IMG/VR virus record: IMGVR_UViG_3300042914_002848
Reading direction: 5' to 3' (one strand)
Length of the DNA: 64,000 nucleotides
Origin: a virus
Taxonomy: Duplodnaviria; Heunggongvirae; Uroviricota; Caudoviricetes
Below, piece after piece: positions 10,633 through 55,294 of the stretch; position 1 is the stretch's first letter, and each line of letters begins with the position of its first letter. The translations under genes and the position numbers were made by a program. The notes under the pieces were generated by a model that searched no databases, was not told where the DNA came from, and saw only the letters and a list, made by a program, of their open reading frames with translations.

Positions 10633-13600
10633 CTATAAGTATTTTATTGAAGAAAAAGAGTTTATTTTATTTATATCAATTATCTGGTCTACCATATCCC
10701 TCGTTTTATCTATGTGGGATATCGTAATAATAAAATCAAATTGAGTTTTTAAATAATCAAATAGCAAATACAAAGAATTAAAATTATCAGTATCCAGTGA
10801 ACCAAACCCCTCATCAATAGCGATAAAGTTTGGACGGGGTAGGTTGGATATACTAATTAATGCGGTTCTGATTGCGATTGAACTCACAAACTTTTCCATA
10901 CCACTTGTCAACTCTAATGGCCAATACTTATCATCTCCATAGCAAATATATGAGTTGATGTTTTTACCATCGGTATCTAATATGATTTGGAAATCCACTA
11001 TAGGTTGAAGAATATTGTTAATTTCAATCTCCAACGTTGGTAATATTTCTGCTATCAATCCATATGGAATACCATCCCGCTTAACTGCTGATAAGTAGTG
11101 TTCGTATCCATTATACTTTAATTCCATTTGATTTAATTTTTTTACAGATTCATTTACAGACTCAATTGTATTTTTTTGAACACGTAACTCACCCAACAAA
11201 TCTATTAAATCGGTTGTAACCTTATTTAATTCGGATTGAGTTTCCAATCTTTTTTGTTTTAGTGAATTAATTTCTTCATTAAGTTTGATGTTGAATTCAA
11301 CCGATTTTTCTTGCTTTTTGGCTTTTTCAATGTTCGCAGATATTTTTTCGTATTGAGATTCGTATTGGTTATAATCGGATTTAGAATCATTTAATTCAGA
11401 TAAAAGATTGTAGTATTTGCGGTTTACCTCTTGCTCTTTTTCTTTGACCTGATTTACCTTATCCAACTCCGTTTTTACATCACACCCCTTTTGTGTTTGA
11501 ACTTTTTCTGATAGTTCGGTTTCTAATACGGATATCTTTTTAGTTAGTGTTACTATTTTAGTTTCCAATTCCAAACTTTGCTTTGCAAATGGAGTGTTTT
11601 TATTTTTAACACAATGTTCACAATTATCATCGTATGTAAAAGAACCAATACCATCCAAATGCTTTTTGGTATGTGATAGTTCAATCTGATACTTTGATAT
11701 GGTTTGTTTTATTAATGCGATATCCCGCTCTAAAACACGCCATTCATTATCTTTTGCTTTTAATTCATCTAAATCATACTCTTTATAGAACTCGCCAATT
11801 CTTTCAAGCTTTTCCTCTAATGGTTTTACTTGGGATTGTAACTCCCTTATATTGGATGATATTGTTCCTATAGAATTCCTACAATCTTTTAATTCGGCAT
11901 TTAATAACTCTAAGTTCAGATTACCATCCACCACAATTAACTTTGCAGACTTATCCTCAATTTGGTTGTGTATATTGTTAAGATTAGTTTCAAAATTTAT
12001 TTTTTTGTTTTCCAAATCAGAAATAGAACCTGTTATAGATTGAGATACTAATTCGGCCTTAGCCAACTTTGTTGGAAAATCTTGCCCCTTATAATCTTTC
12101 AGTAAGGTTGATAACTCCTTTATTTCTTCACTTGCTACTGAATACAATTGCTCAAACACATCCATATCCAAAAATTGAGCAAGTAACTCTTTTCGTTCTT
12201 TTTGTGATTTATCAATAAAACCACTATTGTTAAATTGAGTTGAGAGAGCAGTCAATATGAAATCATCATATGTTCCTACATACTGCCTAATAACTGAATT
12301 TGTATCTCTTCTTTCATCACCATTCAAACTTTCAATATCACCCATATCATTGAATGTGTAAAATTGAGTATCAACTTTTACAGTTCCCTTTTTGGTGGAT
12401 TTATTTGCGGTTCTCTCAATTACATAATCCCTGCCATTTAGTTCAAAGATAAACTTACAATAAAAATTGTTTTTAGAATAATTCATCACATCAACTGCTT
12501 TTGATGTTCGGGAGCACTTATCAAAAATACAAAAGGATAAAGCATCCCACAAAGAAGATTTACCACTTGCGTTGGGAGCAAATACACCATACGCCCCTTT
12601 CATATTTTGAAAGTTTATATAGTTATCTTCCCCATAAGAAAACATATTTGAGAATTGAAATTCTTTTGGAATCCAAACCGAACTCCGAATTGCATGAGGA
12701 TTTACAATCTTTGAGTTTATATCAGCGTTTATACCTTTGACAACTTCTAAAGCTTCTGAATCAATACCAAACTTTTGGGTCAAATAATCTTCCAATAGTT
12801 TATTTTGAAATCCAACATCCCTTACATTATGTAGAGTTATATGTTCTCGTTTTCCAACTTCGTTTGTAGATAAAACTTTCTGAATACTTAACTCTTCTAT
12901 TTCATATTTCTTTTTTAAAGAAGATACAATTTTATTCAACTGTGATGTGGTTGTATCTTTAACCCTTAATCTTAATCTTGGCTTTGGGCAAATGTAATTA
13001 TTTGATACGATTTTACCATCTTCAATATCAATAGTTCCATACCCATACGCATTCTCAATATGAACGAATGTGGAGGACTTTGTTGGTACATCCCATACCA
13101 ATATCCCATGCTCAGGATAAATTGATTCTGAGTGGTTCTGTGTAATCAGGGAGCCTGGGTACTTTATAGTATCCACACCTGATACTGAATTATTGGGAAC
13201 ATGGATATCTCCCAAAAGAACAATATCATATCCTTTAAAAGAATCCACCGTAACTTTTTTGTTATCAATCTTAAATCCATGCTCAGTTTGTATTCCATCA
13301 ACGGGTCCGTGATAAAGAGCGATTTTAAAATCCCCATCAACGCCCGAACTATTTGTAAATCCATCCGATGAATCGAATACTGATTTGTGTGCGAATACGA
13401 TGCCACCAAACTCAAAGGTTGTAGTGTTTTTGTAGTAATATAAGTTTGGGTGATTTAAAGCATCAACAATTGGTGATAACGCATCTAACCGAGAAGGGTT
13501 ATTTAGATTTGCATCGTGGTTGCCAGGAATTAAAATGGTGGGCATGATATCCGATAAATTTCTCAAAAAGTTTTGAGTCATATGTACCACCTCCGGCGTC

Positions 13601-32518: not shown

Positions 32519-33520
32519 TTAAATTGAATGTGGTGAATAACTGAAAATAATATTTTGAACAGATTGACACTTCACTCTGATGATAGATTCTATCTCCGAT
32601 TTAAATGAATCTGAATTTTCAAAATACATTGGTTTACCATAGTAAATAAAACAAAGTGTACCTGCCTCTTCCAATACATCAATTTTGTTGAACACCATAT
32701 CGGTTACACCATTTAAATTTATTGCTTTGATAAGTAAGTCCATATCCAACCAATTAACTTGTCTACTCCTACCAGTGGTAGCACCATATTCATTACCCAA
32801 CAATCGAATCTTACTAAAGATTTCATTATCCCCCTCAAATTGCTTTGCTCCTACATAGGTACGATATCCTTTTGCTACCCCATACACCTTTCGTATCTTT
32901 TGTGGTGGAACACCATTCATAATAGCAGAACCAACTGTACAATGTGATGATGTTACATAAGGGTAATCACCCCAATCAATATCTAACTCAAATCCTTGAG
33001 CACCTTCAAATAAGATTTTTACAGATGTACTACCATAAAACTCTTCGTAGATATCAATAATGTTTTTTAATTTGAATGTATCACCCACTCTAATACCTGT
33101 TCGGGCATACTTATCCCGATACGCAGGCCCATTGCCTGTTTTGGTAGTTCCTATTTTTGTATCTTTGGAATCTTCCATCAAATGTTCGGACCTTATCATA
33201 TGAACCCTCTTATCTATGAAAAGATAATCAGATACATTAATACCCTTATCCTCTAATTCTTTCCATTCCTTATAAAGGTCTGAAATGTTTACTACACATC
33301 CAGGCCCGATGATAGATTTAATACCATAGAATACACCAACGGGAATATAGTGGGTTACAAATTTTTCTCCATTGTGATAAACGGTATGGCCGGCATTTCC
33401 CCCTCCATTATAACGAACCACATGAGTGTATTCTTTATCTTTGGATAGGAAATGCGCAACCTTACCTTTACCAGTATCACCGGCTTGTAAATCTACAATA
33501 ATATCAGCGTACTGAATCAT
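32519..33520 (-). CDS. purA: Adenylosuccinate synthetase (short form)
   Basis: GDTGKGK, GGGNAGHT, IGTTKTGNGPAY, EGAQG..LDID.G.YPYVTSS, GATTGRSR, NKID. Confidence 0.88.
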   Translation of the reverse strand: MIQYADIIVDLQAGDTGKGKVAHFLSKDKEYTHVVRYNGGGNAGHTVYHNGEKFVTHYIPVGVFYGIKSIIGPGCVVNISDLYKEWKELEDKGINVSDYLFIDKRVHMIRSEHLMEDSKDTKIGTTKTGNGPAYRDKYARTGIRVGDTFKLKNIIDIYEEFYGSTSVKILFEGAQGFELDIDWGDYPYVTSSHCTVGSAIMNGVPPQKIRKVYGVAKGYRTYVGAKQFEGDNEIFSKIRLLGNEYGATTGRSRQVNWLDMDLLIKAINLNGVTDMVFNKIDVLEEAGTLCFIYYGKPMYFENSDSFKSEIESIIRVKCQSVQNIIFSYSPHSI

Positions 33521-44347: not shown

Positions 44348-45916
44348 CTAATTTTTTATAATACGCGTTGTGTAATTTCCCGATGGTGTTGTGATATTAA
44401 CAAAAAGAATACCACTTACATTATCTACGATAGTAACCATTGAATGGTTTTCATTGTATGTAATATCCGATTGAACATTAGAACCCATAATATTAAATAC
44501 TGAAATATTTGTAATTCGTTCACCGCATTCTACCATAAATTCATTTTTAATTGGATTGGGATAAACATTCATTCGGTTTGAAATCTCCATATAACGAACC
44601 GATGTCCTAATTGTATCTGGGTTGAAATTAGACCAACCACTCGTCCAGTCAGATTGACCAAACGCACCACGATGGGTAACGGGCGTAAAGAAATTATTTG
44701 AAATTCGGGGATTTGAAAAAGAAGCACCTGTTAATAGAATACTATTTTGTTGTGGTAATAGCTGTGGGTTTGTTAGGCTATTATAACCCGAAGATAATCC
44801 GATTTGGGATGTACTATCAAATATCTCATTTCCTCTCAAAGTATCACCAAAATAATTCAACATCCCAGCCCAAGTATTCGTACCTTGTGTTTGTTCAAAC
44901 TTATTAGTCATATTAGCAAATACCACTCTTTCAATTTGGAGTGAATCATTAGTCGCATTTAATTGAGCCGATGAACCATCAATATGCAATCCAGTCGGAT
45001 ATCCCATAAAAAGGGAATTGTAGACCGATGTACGGGTGTTCCTACGAAGATGTAACGCCCTACGATAAAGAGAAGCAGGTCCACCATTTTCTTTTGGGCC
45101 GATGATAGTTACATTAGAAAATATCGGAGCAGTTTGTGGTGTGTTTGAAGTCCCTGTTCCATCGTTATCGGATTCAAATCCGTTTGATTGAGATTGGTCT
45201 GCAATCTGCGGGTCACGCATTGAAAGAGCAAATTGAACTTTTCCTCTATAACCAAAATCAGTATCAAAATCATCATCCCATCCACGATGGGCAATCAAGT
45301 ACTTACAATTGACTGTACCACCAAACCATTCATAGGAATCATCACCAGAATAGGATACTTGAACATTCTCAACCACAGTCTTACTACCAACCCCACCAAA
45401 TGTCAATCCATTGATTTCACTATTGGGTTGATATGCTATGCCGGGAAATTCAATGCGGACATATCTAAATACACCCGAACTATCTTCATCATCAGTTCCA
45501 CCATAAGTAGCATCTTGTCCTAAGAGCCCACCTTCAATAATACCAACTCCACCAGGAATGTTTGTTGTAGCGTTTCCTAATATTACAACCCCACCCCAAT
45601 CACCATAAGTACGCTGCCCTACAGTTTGATTGGATGTAAAGATAATTGGTTGAGCCGCCGTTCCGTTTGCATAGATGCGGCCGTTTTTTGTAATAATAAG
45701 CGTTCCCTTTGATGCTTTATCACCTCTGATAATTGTACCAGGTTCAATTGTTAGTGTTGCGCCATTCTTTACAAACCGATTACCTTCTAATAAATAAATT
45801 GTTCCACTATTCCAAGTGGTGTTTGTTGTAATATCTGTTCGGATGGTATCAACTGTAGTTTGCGCTTGTGCGAAACTAAACATGCTCAAAAGAGCGAGAA
45901 TAAAACTTTTTTTCAT
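44348..45916 (-). CDS. Secreted beta-helix protein with type IX secretion (T9SS type A) C-terminal sorting domain
   Basis: Signal peptide MKKSFILALL..AQA; LTIEPGT, DSSGVFRYVRIEF, DDSYEWFGG, DDDFDTD; C-terminal VYPNP...VFNIMG...GILFV...RIIKN. Confidence 0.85.
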   Translation of the reverse strand: MKKSFILALLSMFSFAQAQTTVDTIRTDITTNTTWNSGTIYLLEGNRFVKNGATLTIEPGTIIRGDKASKGTLIITKNGRIYANGTAAQPIIFTSNQTVGQRTYGDWGGVVILGNATTNIPGGVGIIEGGLLGQDATYGGTDDEDSSGVFRYVRIEFPGIAYQPNSEINGLTFGGVGSKTVVENVQVSYSGDDSYEWFGGTVNCKYLIAHRGWDDDFDTDFGYRGKVQFALSMRDPQIADQSQSNGFESDNDGTGTSNTPQTAPIFSNVTIIGPKENGGPASLYRRALHLRRNTRTSVYNSLFMGYPTGLHIDGSSAQLNATNDSLQIERVVFANMTNKFEQTQGTNTWAGMLNYFGDTLRGNEIFDSTSQIGLSSGYNSLTNPQLLPQQNSILLTGASFSNPRISNNFFTPVTHRGAFGQSDWTSGWSNFNPDTIRTSVRYMEISNRMNVYPNPIKNEFMVECGERITNISVFNIMGSNVQSDITYNENHSMVTIVDNVSGILFVNITTPSGNYTTRIIKN

Positions 45917-46613: not shown

Positions 46614-46684
46614 CGGTTCATAGGGGTTATGCTCCCCTGCCTCGGCAGTGACAGTGCCGTATTCTACTATTATACTAATGAACC
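46614..46684 (-). tRNA. tRNA-Asp(GTC) with non-canonical T-loop (AGCATAA)
   Basis: GGTTCAT/ATGAACC acceptor, CGGCA CTGTCAC TGCCG, AGGGG AGCATAA CCCCT. Confidence 0.75.
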
Positions 46685-47906: not shown

Positions 47907-48356
47907 TTAACGGCAGTGATAATCTGCCGCTTTTGTAGCAATTTGAATATCAGGTTTGACATTCACTTTGTATCCCAACGATAAGGCCCAACCACGAGTT
48001 GCTCCTATAAGTTTGTGGCTAGGTGCAATTTCGTCTTGGTTATAGTCCATATCAATTTCAACATTTATGTTGATTTGTTGGGTAAACCATTCTGCCACTT
48101 CCAATGTACGAGCGCATTCATCAAATAATCTTGTGAACATATCACGCACCAATGGAACTTTTTCTTTTGTGTAAATATAGTGAACACCTCTGATACCAAA
48201 ACGATATGCTATTGCAGTTACATACGATGTTTCCAATCCTACATTTTGAGAATCAGTACCAATATGAACTTTTAGATTAGGATACCGTTTCATTATATCC
48301 AAGGTATGTTCAACAACATCTACCACTCTGTTGTCTACTGATTTAAACCTTTTCAT
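47907..48356 (-). CDS. RNase H-like YkuK (DUF458) family protein
   Basis: VHIGTDSQ, RLFDE...LEVA, EIDMDYN, VKPD..IATKAAD. Confidence 0.8.
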   Translation of the reverse strand: MKRFKSVDNRVVDVVEHTLDIMKRYPNLKVHIGTDSQNVGLETSYVTAIAYRFGIRGVHYIYTKEKVPLVRDMFTRLFDECARTLEVAEWFTQQININVEIDMDYNQDEIAPSHKLIGATRGWALSLGYKVNVKPDIQIATKAADYHCR

Positions 48357-48860: not shown

Positions 48861-48934
48861 TGGTGAATGGTTGGATTCGAACCAACGACGCGAGGCTCTT
48901 CAGGCCTCCGCTCTACCAACTGAGCTACATCACC
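48861..48934 (-). tRNA. tRNA-Phe(GAA), one-nt bulge in acceptor stem
   Basis: GAGGC CTGAAGA GCCTC; GGTGATG vs CATTCACC. Confidence 0.88.
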
Positions 48935-48939
48935 AAATG

Positions 48940-49074
48940 AACACAATGTTGGAGTACCCATCTCGCTCCAATCTTAACTGCTTATTCGTAGTTTTACGAG
49001 GCCTCGGCAGAGGGTGCTAACTCCATATAGAGACCTGCGCTGGTCTTTGTTCTATACTTCTGTTCATTGTGTTT
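48940..49074 (-). ncRNA. Unknown structured RNA (~135 nt), closed multibranch fold
   Basis: Terminal stem AACACAATG/CATTGTGTT; internal AGACC/GGTCT, TGGAGT/ACTCCA, TCGTA/TACGA. Confidence 0.6.
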
Positions 49075-49076
49075 TG

Positions 49077-49208
49077 TAGTCAGGACAGGATTCGAACCTG
49101 TATGTGGTAATCCTTCCAGATATTTCTCACTTACGTTTTTGCCGTATTAGCGTCTACCATATCCAGCACATACTATTACTCTTTGTGCTTTCATTCCGCC
49201 ACCTGACT
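49077..49208 (-). ncRNA. tRNA-scaffold RNA copy 1 (acceptor stem and T-arm, expanded interior)
   Basis: AGTCAGG...ACAGGTTCGAATCCTGTCCTGACT; no canonical anticodon arm. Confidence 0.75.
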
Positions 49209-49213
49209 ATATT

Positions 49214-49288
49214 GTCCACTCTGTTGGATTCGAACCAACTTACTCGCTCTGTGTTCGGATACCGCAGTACCAGGCGACATAGAGGTCA
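49214..49288 (-). ncRNA. tRNA-like element lacking canonical D/anticodon arms
   Basis: GTTGG TTCGAAT CCAAC T-arm, partial acceptor CTCT/AGAG, internal TCGC/GCGA stem. Confidence 0.5.
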
Positions 49289-49319
49289 AAGTGTTTTACC
49301 ACATAACACTAAGAGTGAG

Positions 49320-49394
49320 TACACCTTGCTAGATTCGAACTAGCGACCCTTTGCTTGTAAAACAAATGCTCTGAACCAACTGAGCTAAAGGTGT
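49320..49394 (-). tRNA. tRNA-Val(TAC)
   Basis: TTTGT TTTACAA GCAAA. Confidence 0.9.
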
Positions 49395-49399
49395 AAATG

Positions 49400-49472
49400 T
49401 GACCCCGAACGGAATCGAACCGTTACTCCCCTGGTTAAAAGCCAGGTGCTTTACCAATTAAGCTACGAAGTC
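49400..49472 (-). tRNA. tRNA-Lys(TTT)
   Basis: CCTGG CTTTTAA CCAGG. Confidence 0.9.
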
Positions 49473-49477
49473 TTTTG

Positions 49478-49551
49478 TACTCCCGACAGGACTTGAACCT
49501 GTAACCTCGATGGTATAAGCATCTTGCGCTAACCAATTGCGCCACGAGAGC
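49478..49551 (-). tRNA. tRNA-Ile(TAT)
   Basis: GATG CTTATAC CATC; complete cloverleaf. Confidence 0.85.
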
Positions 49552-49560
49552 ATAATTATG

Positions 49561-49646
49561 AGGAAGAGGTGAGATTCGAACTCACGGAGCTTTAACACCC
49601 TCCGGTTTTCAAGACCGGTGCAATAGACCAACTCTGCCACCCTTCC
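49561..49646 (-). tRNA. tRNA-Ser(TGA)
   Basis: CCGGT CTTGAAA ACCGG, long variable arm. Confidence 0.92.
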
Positions 49647-49652
49647 ATTATG

Positions 49653-49780
49653 TAGTCAGGACAGGATTCGAACCTGTACGCAGGGCTTTCTAAGTCTTTG
49701 CCTCCTGCATCCCTCTTGAGTGTCCTTCTGTATTGCTACATTTCCTCCGTTGGATTGCGTCTACATTCCGCCACCTGACT
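49653..49780 (-). ncRNA. tRNA-scaffold RNA copy 2
   Basis: AGTCAGGTGGCGGAATGTAGACGC...ACAGGTTCGAATCCTGTCCTGACT. Confidence 0.75.
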
Positions 49781-49786
49781 ATATTT

Positions 49787-49938
49787 AAAGTAACCCAACT
49801 CAGAAGGGTATTTGTTACATTATCACAGCTTTTGCAATGTACTCTGGTTAATTATTCCGTCTGTACCCAACCGCTTTATGTTGGCTTATAGCTGGCTATT
49901 TTAATGCAACTCACAACTTTATTTGTTGGAATTACTTT
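49787..49938 (-). ncRNA. Unknown structured RNA (~150 nt)
   Basis: Terminal stem AAAGTAA(TT)CCAAC/GTTGG(G)TTACTTT, internal CCAAC/GTTGG and TACATT/AATGTA. Confidence 0.45.
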
Positions 49939-49941
49939 TTG

Positions 49942-50063
49942 CAGTCAGGACAGGATTCGAACCTGTGACATTGCAACCCTTATACTTCTCGCGTCCAAAT
50001 GATTTTGAATCGTGGTGTTTTTGGGATGTGATAAACCTCTTTCACATTACGCAATACCTGACT
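49942..50063 (-). ncRNA. tRNA-scaffold RNA copy 3
   Basis: AGTCAGG...ACAGGTTCGAATCCTGTCCTGACT with an unrelated structured interior. Confidence 0.75.
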
Positions 50064-50068
50064 ATATG

Positions 50069-50139
50069 TTGCCCCCCAAGGATTCGAACCTCGATAAACA
50101 GAATCAAAGTCTGCTGTCCTGCCGTTAGACGAGGGGGCA
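50069..50139 (-). tRNA. tRNA-Gln(TTG)
   Basis: GCAGA CTTTGAT TCTGT. Confidence 0.9.
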
Positions 50140-50152
50140 GTGGTTTTCCAAG

Positions 50153-50164
50153 ATGTCAAAGAAC
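50153..50164 (-). promoter_or_regulatory. rrn-type boxA antitermination element
   Basis: GTTCTTTGACAT about 14 nt before the first tRNA; resembles boxA GCTCTTTAACA. Confidence 0.65.
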
Positions 50165-50200
50165 GATGGTTTTTTAGTGAGAACCAACTCAAGAACTAAA

Positions 50201-50256
50201 CAAATATACGAATAAATTTTTAAATTTCCAAGCTTTCAATATTAAATTTGCGTTAA
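50201..50256 (-). promoter_or_regulatory. Bacteroidota-type promoter of the tRNA array
   Basis: TTGG-N19-TATATTTG plus the upstream TTAA-N7-TTAA motif shared with early promoters. Confidence 0.7.
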
Positions 50257-50260
50257 TAAT

Positions 50261-50290
50261 AAAAAAGCCCGAATTTTGTGGTTCGGGCTT
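50261..50290 (-). terminator. Intrinsic terminator (attenuator) downstream of the leader peptide
   Basis: AAGCCCGAA-N8-TTCGGGCTT followed by a T-tract. Confidence 0.85.
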
Positions 50291-53170: not shown

Positions 53171-53569
53171 TTAAAGTTTAATTTCAAAACGATTACGCAT
53201 TTGTTCAATCTTTTCTTCGGGTACTCCATGCTCATTGACACCATTATGGCGATTTTCAACAATGATAGAAAATACTTGATATCCATATTTAGCAGCCAAT
53301 TGATAGTATGCTTCCATCTCCCACTCTTGGGTGAAAGTGTTGGAAACCACAATCCGATTTACATTGATTTGTGGGTCATTACATCTCATCCATATTTGTG
53401 TTTGTGATTGGCAGTAATTATGTGCTAATTTAAGTTTAGAAGCATCAAAATTATATTTACCATCCACCATAAAGTATTGGTCGGCTTCAATATTAATACC
53501 ACCAAGCGCTTTAGCAAGGGTTGATTTACCCGAACCTGGCAGGCCACGAACTAAAAATAACTTTTTCAT
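53171..53569 (-). CDS. P-loop kinase (polynucleotide kinase-like, AAA_33)
   Basis: RGLPGSGKST, EADQYF, VVSNTFT, HGVPEEKIEQMRNRF. Confidence 0.88.
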   Translation of the reverse strand: MKKLFLVRGLPGSGKSTLAKALGGINIEADQYFMVDGKYNFDASKLKLAHNYCQSQTQIWMRCNDPQINVNRIVVSNTFTQEWEMEAYYQLAAKYGYQVFSIIVENRHNGVNEHGVPEEKIEQMRNRFEIKL

Positions 53570-53762
53570 TTTGTTAAACCTCTTTTTTTAAAGTAACCCA
53601 AAGTATTAGATATATCCAAAATGCGTATGGGAATATAAATAAAAATCCTATTCTCCAAAGGATTGGTGGTATTCCACTCCATTTACCAAGTCCATCACAT
53701 ACCCCACCAATATAACCACCATTACCTAAAAATAACTTATCCATTATTCTATATGCTTTCTA

Positions 53763-54221
53763 TTAGAATTCGCCATAATTTACCTGAAAGCATGCAATTC
53801 CCCTATCCCGCCACATCTTTACTACCTTATCCCTATCATCAAAAACGCAGAGGATTTTATTACCATCATTAAGTAATTCATCCAACCACCCGGATTTCAG
53901 TACATCATCGGGAGTGTAATCTTTTTGAGGTCGCATATGAAGAAAATCGTAATCTACTCCATTGGATTTCAACCAAGCTTCAGTTTCGGTTTTGGATATT
54001 GAATCCCTACCCGAAAAAATACCTACAGTATATCCGGCCGATTTCATTGCGGAAAAGGCCGAGATAACAGGCAGATTCGGTTTATCCAACTGAATGTTTT
54101 GTGGGTCAAAAAATACACCCCAATTTAATTTACCATTCTGCTTTGTTGCTTTTTCTCGCCTAGCATCAATTAAGGCAAGAGTACCATCCAAATCAAATAT
54201 AACTATAGTTTTCATATACAA
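53763..54221 (-). CDS. HAD-family phosphatase (T4 PseT 3'-phosphatase domain-like)
   Basis: IFDLDGTLA, FSGR, LHMRP..DYTPD...K, VFDDRDKVVKMWR..G. Confidence 0.88.
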   Translation of the reverse strand: MYMKTIVIFDLDGTLALIDARREKATKQNGKLNWGVFFDPQNIQLDKPNLPVISAFSAMKSAGYTVGIFSGRDSISKTETEAWLKSNGVDYDFLHMRPQKDYTPDDVLKSGWLDELLNDGNKILCVFDDRDKVVKMWRDRGIACFQVNYGEF

Positions 54222-54250
54222 ATATACAAATTAAATTTTAAATATCCAAA

Positions 54251-55294
54251 TTAAAGTTTAGAAAATTTAGGTTGGATTATTTTCCATATCAACCTCGAAT
54301 AATCTTTATAATCATACATCTTAAATAAGATTGCCGGGTACTTATGCTTTTTAGCAAGTTCAGCGAACCTGGCACGATTTTCAAATTCATCGGATTTACT
54401 AAGAATCCTAAATATCCAAATATATTCATCCTCTATTTTATTGTATTTATCCACCAACTTATTTGAGTATTGGCGAATCTTATCATAAAATTCATCGGGA
54501 ACATCGGTTAGGGTTGATAGAATATCACCACCATTAGAAAGAACTTCCCATACTGCGGTAGTAGAAAGGTGGGTCATTATTCGGTGAAGTCTTAAATATT
54601 CTTCACCTTTTATTTTAACCCTATCACCATTTGAAAAACGAACTACGAATCCTTCCTGATTGTTTTTTACCATACCTTTTAATAGGTTGTAGTTAGATAT
54701 AGTATCGTATTTCTTTACTAAATCCCAACCTTTAAAAGTAGCTGGTTCACCCCAATAAATTTCAAAAGTAGATGAATCATCTCGCAAAATTTCTTCACCG
54801 GTATCGGTTTTAATAGCAGCAAGTAAAACAAGTCGGCTCACTCCACCATAATCAACAACTATCCTATTTTCGGGATAGATTATCTCAAACAGGTAGGTGT
54901 AACCATCTACTAAAATTTCAGAAAAATTATACCTATCACCCCAATTAGCCATCCATATAGCTTGTTCGGATGTGAACGAACCACGAGTAGCATAAACAGC
55001 CCGGCCTTCCCACATAAAAACGATTCCTAAAGAACCATCCATTTTTTCAAAAACCTCAAACTTTTGGGTTGGTGTATGCTTTTTCTCTTCAATATTAAAA
55101 AACTTTTGGAATGGACGAGCAACTATTTGACCACTACCATCAGTAACAAGACCTCTACATTGTAAAGTAATCTCATCCCACAAACCTTCATATTGAACCT
55201 TTTCGGTATAGTTCCATATAGTAAGTGGTAAGGTTGGGTGAATCTGCGAATATAACAATCCCCTCTCCTTATAATCATTTAATATATCTAACAT
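54251..55294 (-). CDS. RNA ligase 1 (T4 RnlA-like)
   Basis: CRGLV, RPFQKFFN, EKMDGSLG, ATRGSF, FEII.PENRIVV.Y, EGFVV, VKIK. Confidence 0.92.
   Translation of the reverse strand: MLDILNDYKERGLLYSQIHPTLPLTIWNYTEKVQYEGLWDEITLQCRGLVTDGSGQIVARPFQKFFNIEEKKHTPTQKFEVFEKMDGSLGIVFMWEGRAVYATRGSFTSEQAIWMANWGDRYNFSEILVDGYTYLFEIIYPENRIVVDYGGVSRLVLLAAIKTDTGEEILRDDSSTFEIYWGEPATFKGWDLVKKYDTISNYNLLKGMVKNNQEGFVVRFSNGDRVKIKGEEYLRLHRIMTHLSTTAVWEVLSNGGDILSTLTDVPDEFYDKIRQYSNKLVDKYNKIEDEYIWIFRILSKSDEFENRARFAELAKKHKYPAILFKMYDYKDYSRLIWKIIQPKFSKL

Follow-up and report, generated by a model that had tools for sequence, protein, structure and literature searches.

Phage RNAs on a frame derived from leucine tRNA appear to form a modular family with exchangeable structured interiors

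Introduction

The tRNA cluster of an uncultured phage from a lake contains three RNA elements that start and end as tRNAs do and enclose interiors that do not resemble those of tRNAs. What these elements are, and why a phage would keep a tRNA frame around something else, is the question raised by this locus. The elements lie in a stretch of 64,000 nucleotides (the window) of the IMG/VR virus record IMGVR_UViG_3300042914_002848, which is 105 kb long, is estimated to be 58% complete, has a G+C content of ~34% and contains myovirus-type baseplate genes. A preliminary description of the window had proposed that a constant tRNA "top half" displays variable payloads, and had named decoys and guides among the possible roles.

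Comparison with related elements from other phages indicates that the three elements belong to a real, functional and modular RNA family within the class of phage tRNA-like stable RNAs. In the explanation that we consider probable, a frame derived from tRNA-Leu serves as a processing and stability chassis for stable, non-decoding RNAs that carry autonomous modules.

Three tRNA-framed elements in the window

The elements (131, 127 and 121 nt, here copies 1 to 3; Table 1) are encoded on the minus strand inside the tRNA cluster and have the common start and end that the preliminary description had reported. Each begins with AGUCAGGU (AGUCAGG) and ends with the identical 24-mer ACAGGUUCGAAUCCUGUCCUGACU, which consists of a T-arm (ACAGG UUCGAAU CCUGU) followed by the 3' strand of the acceptor stem (CCUGACU). 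The discriminator, which is the last base of each range in Table 1, is A in copies 1 and 2 and G in copy 3. Exact matches to the 24-mer number three in the window, as against none in 100 shuffles, and no additional copy was found in the window even when three mismatches were allowed. The interiors (100, 96 and 90 nt, respectively) are unrelated to one another, as had been noted.

Several features of a canonical tRNA are present in all three elements, namely a 7-bp acceptor stem, a 5-bp T-stem capped by a loop of the GUUCGAAUC type, and a discriminator base. A D-arm with G18G19, together with U8, A14 and U48, is found in copies 1 and 2 and is missing from copy 3. None of the elements has a 5-bp anticodon stem that bears a 7-nt loop containing U33 and a readable anticodon, in agreement with the earlier observation that a normal anticodon arm is lacking; copy 1 has instead a GCAAAAA loop on a 4-bp stem.

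Standard tRNA detection recovers all neighbors of these elements, with 26 tRNA calls in the cluster by ARAGORN and 27 by the Rfam tRNA model. Copies 1–3 themselves receive no ARAGORN call and no Rfam match, either at the gathering score or at E≤1; the best score of any of them against the Rfam tRNA model (RF00005) is 14.7 bits (copy 2), compared to a threshold of 29 bits. An Rfam search with permissive E-values, covering this region, 15 related loci and a free-standing module copy described below (contig L141; L numbers denote the contigs compared with the window), returned only matches to tRNA models on some family members. These results suggest a class of phage RNA genes that tRNA finders overlook systematically.

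A large family in uncultured phages

The preliminary description had recommended a search of phage genomes for the 24-mer with an upstream AGUCAGG. This search located the exact 24-mer in at least 119 uncultured viral contigs of IMG/VR, with up to six copies per contig. Among 185,579 species genomes, the 24-mer was found only in 14 contigs of metagenome-assembled genomes (MAGs) from mixed phyla, which are probably phage DNA in the bins, and in no isolate genome. Cultured phages do not contain it, and the nearest match of a frame probe among them is to ordinary Enterococcus-phage tRNAs (93% identity). By these comparisons, the modular RNA family appears to be large and phage-specific.

The counts given below are drawn from 150 copies of the 24-mer, which represent 124 unique members; 101 members have a Leu-type D-arm, and 118 interiors (cargos) were clustered. 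AGUCAGG is located 53–181 nt upstream of the 24-mer in 129 of the 150 copies (278 nt in one doubtful case), and in most cases it is followed by UG GCGGAAU(U)GGUAGACGC, which is the D-arm found in bacterial tRNA-Leu. An alignment with genuine tRNA-Leu matches the frame at the positions of A73, A15-U48 and G18G19, and its key bases are highly conserved among the unique members (U-1 in 110, U8 in 120, U48 in 106 and A73 in 112). The cargos are as diverse as the frame is constant: the 118 analyzed fall into 101 unrelated clusters, 89 of which are singletons.

The flanks of the frame match those of the genuine tRNAs nearby: position -1 is U, CCA is not encoded, and an N73-C-A-rich trailer follows. 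CCA is encoded by none of the 233 ordinary tRNAs of the family loci and is not among the commonest trailers of the 150 elements, and the discriminator-C-A-rich trailer is common to both groups. Neighboring tRNAs always share the strand of the elements.

An 89-nt gene in L099 (4390–4479), also present in L064 and L070, is built on the AGUCAGG frame and has a CUUAAGU loop and a GAAA-capped variable arm. ARAGORN identifies it as tRNA-Leu(UAA), and its anticodon stem appears over-long, with a mismatch. Judging from its sequence, the family frame may here carry a functional tRNA-Leu, which would make the gene a possible ancestor state.

Modules with and without a tRNA frame

The cargo of copy 2 is a conserved module that consists of AAUCCAACGGAGGAAA, a variable GNRA-capped hairpin followed by GAAGGACACUCAARAGGGAU, and a final hairpin with the loop AAAGUCUUAGAAA. 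About 25 distinct copies of this module were found elsewhere, 13 of them free-standing and the rest in tRNA frames; a covariance model (R1) built from these ~25 copies gives copy 2 of the window a score of 99.5 bits. The frames that hold the module are of at least four kinds: the AGUCAGG frame, a GGCUGUA/UACAGCC frame with discriminator C (L158), a frame with the T-stem GCUCG/CGGGC, and a frame without the Leu D-arm (L162). Across these framed copies, compensatory changes occur at six of the seven acceptor pairs and three of the five T-stem pairs, and the cargo is almost invariant. Both the outer and the inner pairs of the second hairpin of the module (P4) covary. The branched domain on the anticodon side and the long variable arm that had been proposed for copy 2 are both supported by covariation.

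The 13 free-standing copies have a closing helix of their own, with covariation between contigs. Another cargo family likewise occurs free-standing, in L009, where it is closed by a 12-bp helix and starts 7 nt after an ordinary tRNA. Therefore, the modules are autonomous, and the tRNA frame is an optional carrier.

The copy 2 module is not in Rfam, and R1 has no match in five of the MAGs with the 24-mer or in a sample of 151 genomes from the phylum of one of these MAGs. Exact-word scans for the 5' junction of copy 2 gave no match, and a 19-mer match in L140 lies in coding sequence and was rejected as due to chance. In L144 (10431–12003), a Band-7/SPFH gene, a free-standing copy of the module (11451–11555) and a tmRNA called by ARAGORN (11670–12003) occur within 1.6 kb. 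This arrangement brings to mind the predicted Band-7-associated tRNA-like RNAs; seen only once, it could be a coincidence.

Copy 3 has no D-arm, and the helix that closes its cargo stacks directly beneath the acceptor/T-arm minihelix. The same cargo was found in 10 other contigs and in three frame variants. The acceptor stems of this group are AGUCAGG/CCUGACU, AGUCAAG/CUUGACU and GGUCAGG/CCUGGCC, and the T-stems are ACAGG, ACAAG, GUGGG and of the UCGG type. In the alignment of these sequences (A3), 13 of 30 pairs keep their pairing through double changes, including pairs in the acceptor stem, the T-stem, the closing helix and both hairpins. The closed domain without a D-arm, as initially described, is thereby confirmed. 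Matches in L153 and L156 from the scan with this cargo lie in coding sequence and were discarded as chance hits.

Copy 1 indicates a second site of insertion. It corresponds to a 98-nt element of L138, L139 and L166 to which a 33-nt hairpin has been added in the D-loop, between GGAAU and UGGUAGA. The Leu-like D-arm with a hairpin in its loop had been recognized previously; close relatives lack the hairpin. The hairpin has an invariant loop, AAAGAGUAAUAGUAU, and three of its six stem pairs show compensatory changes. It recurs at the same position of the D-loop in L239, L262, L267 and L286, where its partners are other cargos and acceptor stems of at least three kinds; therefore, the D-loop is a second cargo slot. 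These four are the only real matches among at least 119 obtained in a 15-mer scan for the module, most of which are chance AT-rich matches. Different inserts are present in the D-loop in L092, L044, L060, L022, L146, L158 and L174.

Exchange of modules at the frames

Over ~3 kb of the cluster, the close relatives L138 and L139 share 93% identity with the window. The segment of L138 that begins with the 3' frame of copy 3, crosses the 161-nt spacer and ends with the 5' frame of copy 2 matches the window at 99.1% identity, while the interiors on either side are unrelated (46% and 34% identity), so that the breakpoints fall at the frames. L138 also carries two elements at the position of copy 2, and in L163 and L166 the same cargos are combined and ordered differently. 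Between contigs whose gene neighborhoods are unrelated, the nucleotide sequence of the commonest frame does not vary. Phages thus appear to exchange modules by recombination within the conserved frame sequences.

The frame as a probable processing and stability chassis

The explanation that we favor as probable is that the frame provides built-in punctuation and stabilization, and that the modules are the working parts. The chassis would retain the acceptor stem, the T-arm, discriminator A and usually a Leu-type D-arm with G18G19. One or two folded modules would be displayed where a class II tRNA tolerates extra structure, that is, in the D-loop and in the region of the anticodon and variable arms. 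The elements would be co-transcribed with the neighboring tRNAs from a promoter-like site located downstream of an intrinsic terminator (Table 1). RNase P would cut at A1, after U-1, the 3' trailer would be trimmed, a host enzyme would add CCA, and the compact L-shape would protect the module.

All elements and tRNAs of the cluster are on the minus strand, with spacers of 4–10 nt between the elements and the adjacent tRNA-Gln and tRNA-Ser; the tRNA-Gln gene and copy 3 are separated by 4 nt. From 50200 to 48600 the minus strand showed no strong terminator, and the region 50203–50290 is likely the start of the transcription unit that holds the elements.

Five observations weigh against this interpretation or limit it. 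The z-scores of minimum free energy for single sequences are weak (-0.9 to -2.0), so that the structural support comes from covariation and not from thermodynamics. The free-standing copies show that a module does not need the frame. No ordinary tRNA is located within 1.5 kb of 94 of the 150 members; therefore, release from a tRNA polycistron is not the whole reason for the frame. The commonest frame is near-invariant in nucleotides, beyond what folding requires, which hints at a sequence-specific partner or at homogenization by recombination. Finally, the main cargo of copy 1 has no relative beyond near-identical phages.

The earlier proposal of a constant frame with variable payloads is, in these terms, upheld in part. 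Compensatory helices, tRNA-type flanks, a retained bacterial leucyl-tRNA synthetase identity set and portable, conserved modules agree with it, while the notion of an identical top half applies only partially, as the same cargo also occurs in several frames or in none. A role as guides was not borne out: the longest antisense matches of the cargos to the 105-kb phage record are 11–13 nt, no better than those of shuffled cargos.

Strongly conserved unpaired nucleotides in the modules suggest a specific protein or ligand partner. All-against-all clustering of the open reading frames (ORFs) within 4 kb of the 150 members revealed no ORF family in more than 13 loci and thus no conserved protein partner in these neighborhoods. 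The top clusters were terminase, a homing-endonuclease-like ORF (9 loci), a phosphoesterase and unknowns. The only ORFs common to the neighborhoods of the copy 2 module are spurious ones that overlap the RNA itself.

Alternative explanations

The alternative that survives best, although we regard it as rather unlikely, is that the frame matters through charging: the host leucyl-tRNA synthetase (LeuRS) would attach leucine to copies 1 and 2, and EF-Tu might bind them, although they lack an anticodon, and the charged state would be part of their function. Charging could protect the 3' end, occupy or redirect LeuRS or EF-Tu, or tether tRNA-handling proteins to the target of the cargo, in the way that Y RNAs tether Ro60 to PNPase. 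The leucine identity set of E. coli consists of A73, A15-U48, G18G19 and the contacts of the D-loop with the T-loop, and a truncated tRNA-Leu that has neither an anticodon arm nor a long variable arm is still charged (PMC9976931). The frame retains this set, and the replaced parts are those reported to be dispensable, so that copies 1 and 2 are predicted substrates of LeuRS, with the proviso that the rules of E. coli may not be those of the host. Among the 101 members with a Leu-type D-arm, A73 is kept in 93, A14A15 in 94 and U48 in 92, and the gene that ARAGORN calls tRNA-Leu(UAA) in L099, L064 and L070 uses the same frame. On the other hand, copy 3 and its relatives have no D-arm, the discriminator of copy 3 is G, and the copy 2 module also occurs in a frame with discriminator C, in a frame without the Leu D-arm and without any frame. 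Therefore, charging cannot be essential to the function of the modules, and it is better regarded, on present comparisons, as a rival or an addition to the chassis than as its core. If the frames are charged, they would represent a new non-translational use of aminoacyl-tRNA-like molecules by viruses.

A broader and more speculative form of the chassis explanation is an RNA display or adaptor system, in which hundreds of aptamer-like modules are mounted on a Leu-tRNA chassis that is processed by the host, CCA-tailed and perhaps leucylated. The chimeras might tether LeuRS, EF-Tu, the CCA enzyme or RNase P to the target of the module, or hide the module among tRNAs, and the modules would be traded as cassettes. 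Such a system would be an RNA counterpart of swappable protein domains in host takeover.

We consider it improbable that the elements act as decoys or sponges against host anti-phage factors directed at the ends or bodies of tRNAs, for example nucleases of the CCA end or the acceptor stem, toxins of the nucleotidyltransferase or pyrophosphokinase type, or anticodon nucleases, with the variety of cargos reflecting an arms race. The phage carries a T4-type tRNA repair set (53171–55294), which makes tRNA-directed defense plausibly relevant, and the extreme diversity of the cargos and their rapid turnover between near-identical phages resemble conflict-driven evolution. However, an acceptor-end decoy would not need an elaborate, individually conserved and covarying cargo, free-standing cargo copies have no tRNA part at all, and no defense or counter-defense gene is consistently adjacent. 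A decoy for anticodon nucleases is unlikely in particular, as no anticodon-loop mimic is conserved.

It is somewhat less probable still that selection on the frame acts mainly through its DNA, with the frame serving as homology arms or a recombination site in an integron-like trade of cassettes and its tRNA-likeness being a relic of an ancestral tRNA-Leu gene. The exchange breakpoints exactly in the frames, the nucleotide invariance of the commonest frame across unrelated neighborhoods and the shuffling of cassette sets among relatives are as expected from such a role. However, frames that differ keep their helices through compensatory changes, both around the copy 2 module and in the copy 3 group, and the contacts of U8, A14, A15, G18G19 and U48 are kept along with U-1, which is favored by RNase P. 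These features therefore point to selection on the RNA and speak against a role played by the DNA alone. Neither a recombinase nor a homing nuclease is a consistent neighbor, the homing-endonuclease-like ORF being present in only 9 loci. The DNA-level explanation is best seen as complementary to the chassis and not as exclusive of it.

That the elements are decaying tRNA-Leu pseudogenes, or tRNA genes whose intron is spliced out to leave an ordinary tRNA, is hardly credible: the frame does derive from tRNA-Leu, CUCAAGA in copy 2 lies beside the 3' strand of an anticodon-like stem, copy 1 has its 7-nt loop on a 4-bp stem, and 32 of the 150 members receive some ARAGORN call, but the anticodons so called are scattered and some are impossible, most members would have no anticodon arm after any simple excision, the same cargos also occur without a surrounding tRNA, and compensatory conservation of the frame together with covariation of the cargos across phages and frames rules out decay. 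The group I intron of tRNA-Leu is self-splicing, measures ~200 nt or more and lies in the anticodon loop, where its removal leaves an intact anticodon arm. Such an intron was rejected here, as the interiors of 90–100 nt are too short for the group I introns of bacterial tRNA-Leu, give no match to group I or other Rfam models, and allow no Leu anticodon arm to be reconstituted for copies 1 and 3. The preliminary description had named pseudogene decay and ordinary intron-containing tRNAs as outcomes that would overturn it; the covarying cargos and their frameless copies largely refute both.

Relation to known RNAs

Closest in design, by analogy, are T5 RNA1 and RNA2 and the T4 species 1 RNA, which show that RNAs of this kind can accumulate in infected cells. 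Our statements on both phages are based on the annotations of their records (T4, NC_000866; T5, NC_005859). The T5 RNAs, annotated as "tRNA-like stable RNA with unknown functions", are located inside the tRNA cluster of the phage and on the strand of the tRNAs, as are the elements of the window, and their record as stable RNAs provides the precedent that such RNAs are expressed and processed. In RNA1 (144 nt), an acceptor-like stem, a Leu-type D-arm (CCGGAAUUGGUAGACGG) and a T-arm accompany an enlarged interior that bears a long extra arm. The T-arm of RNA2 (125 nt; GCAGG UUCGAAU CCUGU) is near-identical to that of the family. The T5 RNAs differ in being single, fixed genes of one cultured coliphage, with no homology to the family detected by blastn in either interiors or acceptor stems. 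In the literature searched, neither an invariant frame, swappable cargo, a D-loop module nor free-standing cargo has been described for them.

The T4 species 1 and species 2 RNAs (rnaC and rnaD) are small and stable, have no known function, and are encoded beside tRNA-Arg within the tRNA cluster of T4. The 139-nt rnaC ends with a T-arm (CCGGG UUCGAAU CCCGG) and has a partly paired acceptor-like stem and a large interior, a design like that of the D-arm-less copy 3. It differs in having an imperfect acceptor stem, with two U-U mismatches by our reading, and no Leu-type D-arm. There is no clear tRNA frame in rnaD, and the T4 RNAs have neither sequence similarity to the family nor any sign of modular exchange. 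The design shared with the T4 and T5 RNAs is thus the location in a tRNA cluster and an acceptor-like stem and T-arm around an enlarged interior (~120–145 nt in total). A blastn search of 48900–50200 against 50,697 phage records matched only ordinary tRNAs, with no match covering copies 1–3. Therefore, the resemblance is one of design and not of demonstrable descent.

A tRNA scaffold for the production of recombinant RNA, which is used in PMC3753655, was reportedly engineered by Ponchon and Dardel. It follows the same logic, in that the RNA of interest replaces the anticodon arm and gains tRNA-like processing and nuclease resistance. It is a laboratory design on other tRNAs with a single insertion site; the family, in contrast, is natural, Leu-derived, and has two sites and hundreds of variants.

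The ends of transfer-messenger RNA (tmRNA), which is processed by RNase P and charged, likewise form an acceptor stem and T-arm around a non-tRNA interior. The family differs from tmRNA in having no reading frame for a tag, no series of pseudoknots and no G3:U70 alanine identity (the frame has U3-A70), and neither ARAGORN nor Rfam calls a tmRNA in the window. YrlA and the predicted b7a-tRNA are modular RNAs that combine a tRNA-like domain, with genuine tertiary contacts, and another module; some are encoded by phages and linked to RNA repair genes (bioRxiv 10.1101/312249). The phage described here similarly carries Pnkp and Rnl1. YrlA, however, has a closed acceptor loop and its ends form the Ro60-binding stem, while the ends of the family form an open acceptor stem with a discriminator. 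The only match of the Rfam YrlA model is a spurious one of 26 bits (threshold, 69) across two ordinary tRNAs, and an Rsr/Ro60 gene was not observed.

The literature searched yielded no account of exchangeable cargo on a common frame, and the family is absent from Rfam. With this family, the tRNA-like design of the T4 and T5 RNAs is no longer peculiar to two coliphages; it is widespread and modular in environmental phages, where one nearly invariant Leu-tRNA frame with two insertion slots holds at least 100 unrelated cargo modules that are exchanged between close relatives. The frameless modules separate the job of the frame from that of the cargo and offer natural comparisons of the same cargo on different carriers and of different cargos on the same carrier. 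The modules of copy 2, copy 3 and the D-loop represent well-supported new structured RNA motifs absent from Rfam.

Genomic setting and other features

Table 1. Positions of the tRNA-framed elements and of other features in the window.
Feature	Position	Strand	Description
Copy 1	49077..49208	-	131 nt plus discriminator A at 49077; acceptor 5' strand at 49202-49208
Copy 1 D-arm	~49160-49192 (hairpin module)	-	Leu-type, split by the 33-nt D-loop hairpin module
Copy 1 cargo	~49102-49149	-	4-bp stem with 7-nt loop GCAAAAA, then long variable-arm hairpin
Copy 1 T-arm and acceptor 3' strand	49078-49101	-	24-mer
Copy 2	49653..49780	-	127 nt plus discriminator A at 49653; acceptor, then Leu-type D-arm at 49757-49771
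Copy 2 cargo module	49678-49757	-	P2 AUCC/GGAU, inner GAG/CUC, GNRA-capped hairpin, P4 hairpin with loop AAAGACUUAGAAA
Copy 2 T-arm and acceptor 3' strand	49654-49677	-	24-mer
Copy 3	49942..50063	-	121 nt plus discriminator G at 49942; acceptor stem and T-arm, without D-arm
Copy 3 cargo		-	Closing helix AUUGC/GCAAU, two hairpins, invariant single strands AAAAACACCACG and GCGAGAAG
Copy 3 T-arm and acceptor 3' strand	49943-49966	-	24-mer
Fourth tRNA-shaped element, other frame	49212..49318	-	Predicted fold: acceptor UCACUCU/AGAGUGG, D-like arm, T-arm GUUGG/CCAAC
tRNA-Gln	50139-50068	-	
Promoter-like site	50231-50203	-	Upstream of tRNA-Gln; candidate from consensus scan only
Intrinsic terminator	50290-50265	-	Candidate from consensus scan only
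Structured RNA	48937-49075	-	~139 nt, 9-bp closing helix, between copy 1 and tRNA-Phe
tRNA (Rfam)	46614-46684	-	47.8 bits
522-aa ORF	44348-45916	-	Ends in type IX secretion C-terminal sorting domain
149-aa ORF	47907-48356	-	RNase H-like (PF04308), within the tRNA cluster
phrog_1211 ORF	32519-33520	-	E = 1.6e-74; adenylosuccinate-synthetase-like
AAA_33 kinase ORF	53171-53569	-	tRNA repair set
PNKP phosphatase-domain ORF	53763-54221	-	tRNA repair set
RNA ligase 1/gp63-like ORF (Rnl1)	54251-55294	-	tRNA repair set

The fourth tRNA-shaped element, which is of the same kind as copies 1–3 and was overlooked in the preliminary description, has ~51 nt in place of the anticodon and variable regions. 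It is conserved at 97% in L138, L139, L163 and L166 and at 80% in L010, and is called by neither ARAGORN nor Rfam. The structured RNA adjacent to copy 1 (z-score -2.6) is without a tRNA frame; its core (positions ~57–136) is 78–95% conserved in L010, L149–L151, L155, L157, L054, L067 and L011, and by its sequence it looks like a free-standing module. The Rfam tRNA at 46614–46684 was missed by ARAGORN, which calls tRNA-Asp and tRNA-Gly at the apparent counterpart in L138.

The type IX sorting-domain ORF, together with the matches of the 24-mer in MAGs, makes the Bacteroidota the likely host phylum of the phage. In the T4-type tRNA repair set, the kinase and the phosphatase are separate ORFs, compared to the fused Pnkp of T4. 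The RNase H-like ORF lies among the tRNA genes themselves. The phrog_1211 ORF, labeled "2-aminooxy adenylosuccinate synthetase" in PHROGs, is one that we take to be PurZ-like, a match that does not distinguish PurZ from ordinary PurA; from this gene, the phage might replace adenine by 2-aminoadenine in its DNA.

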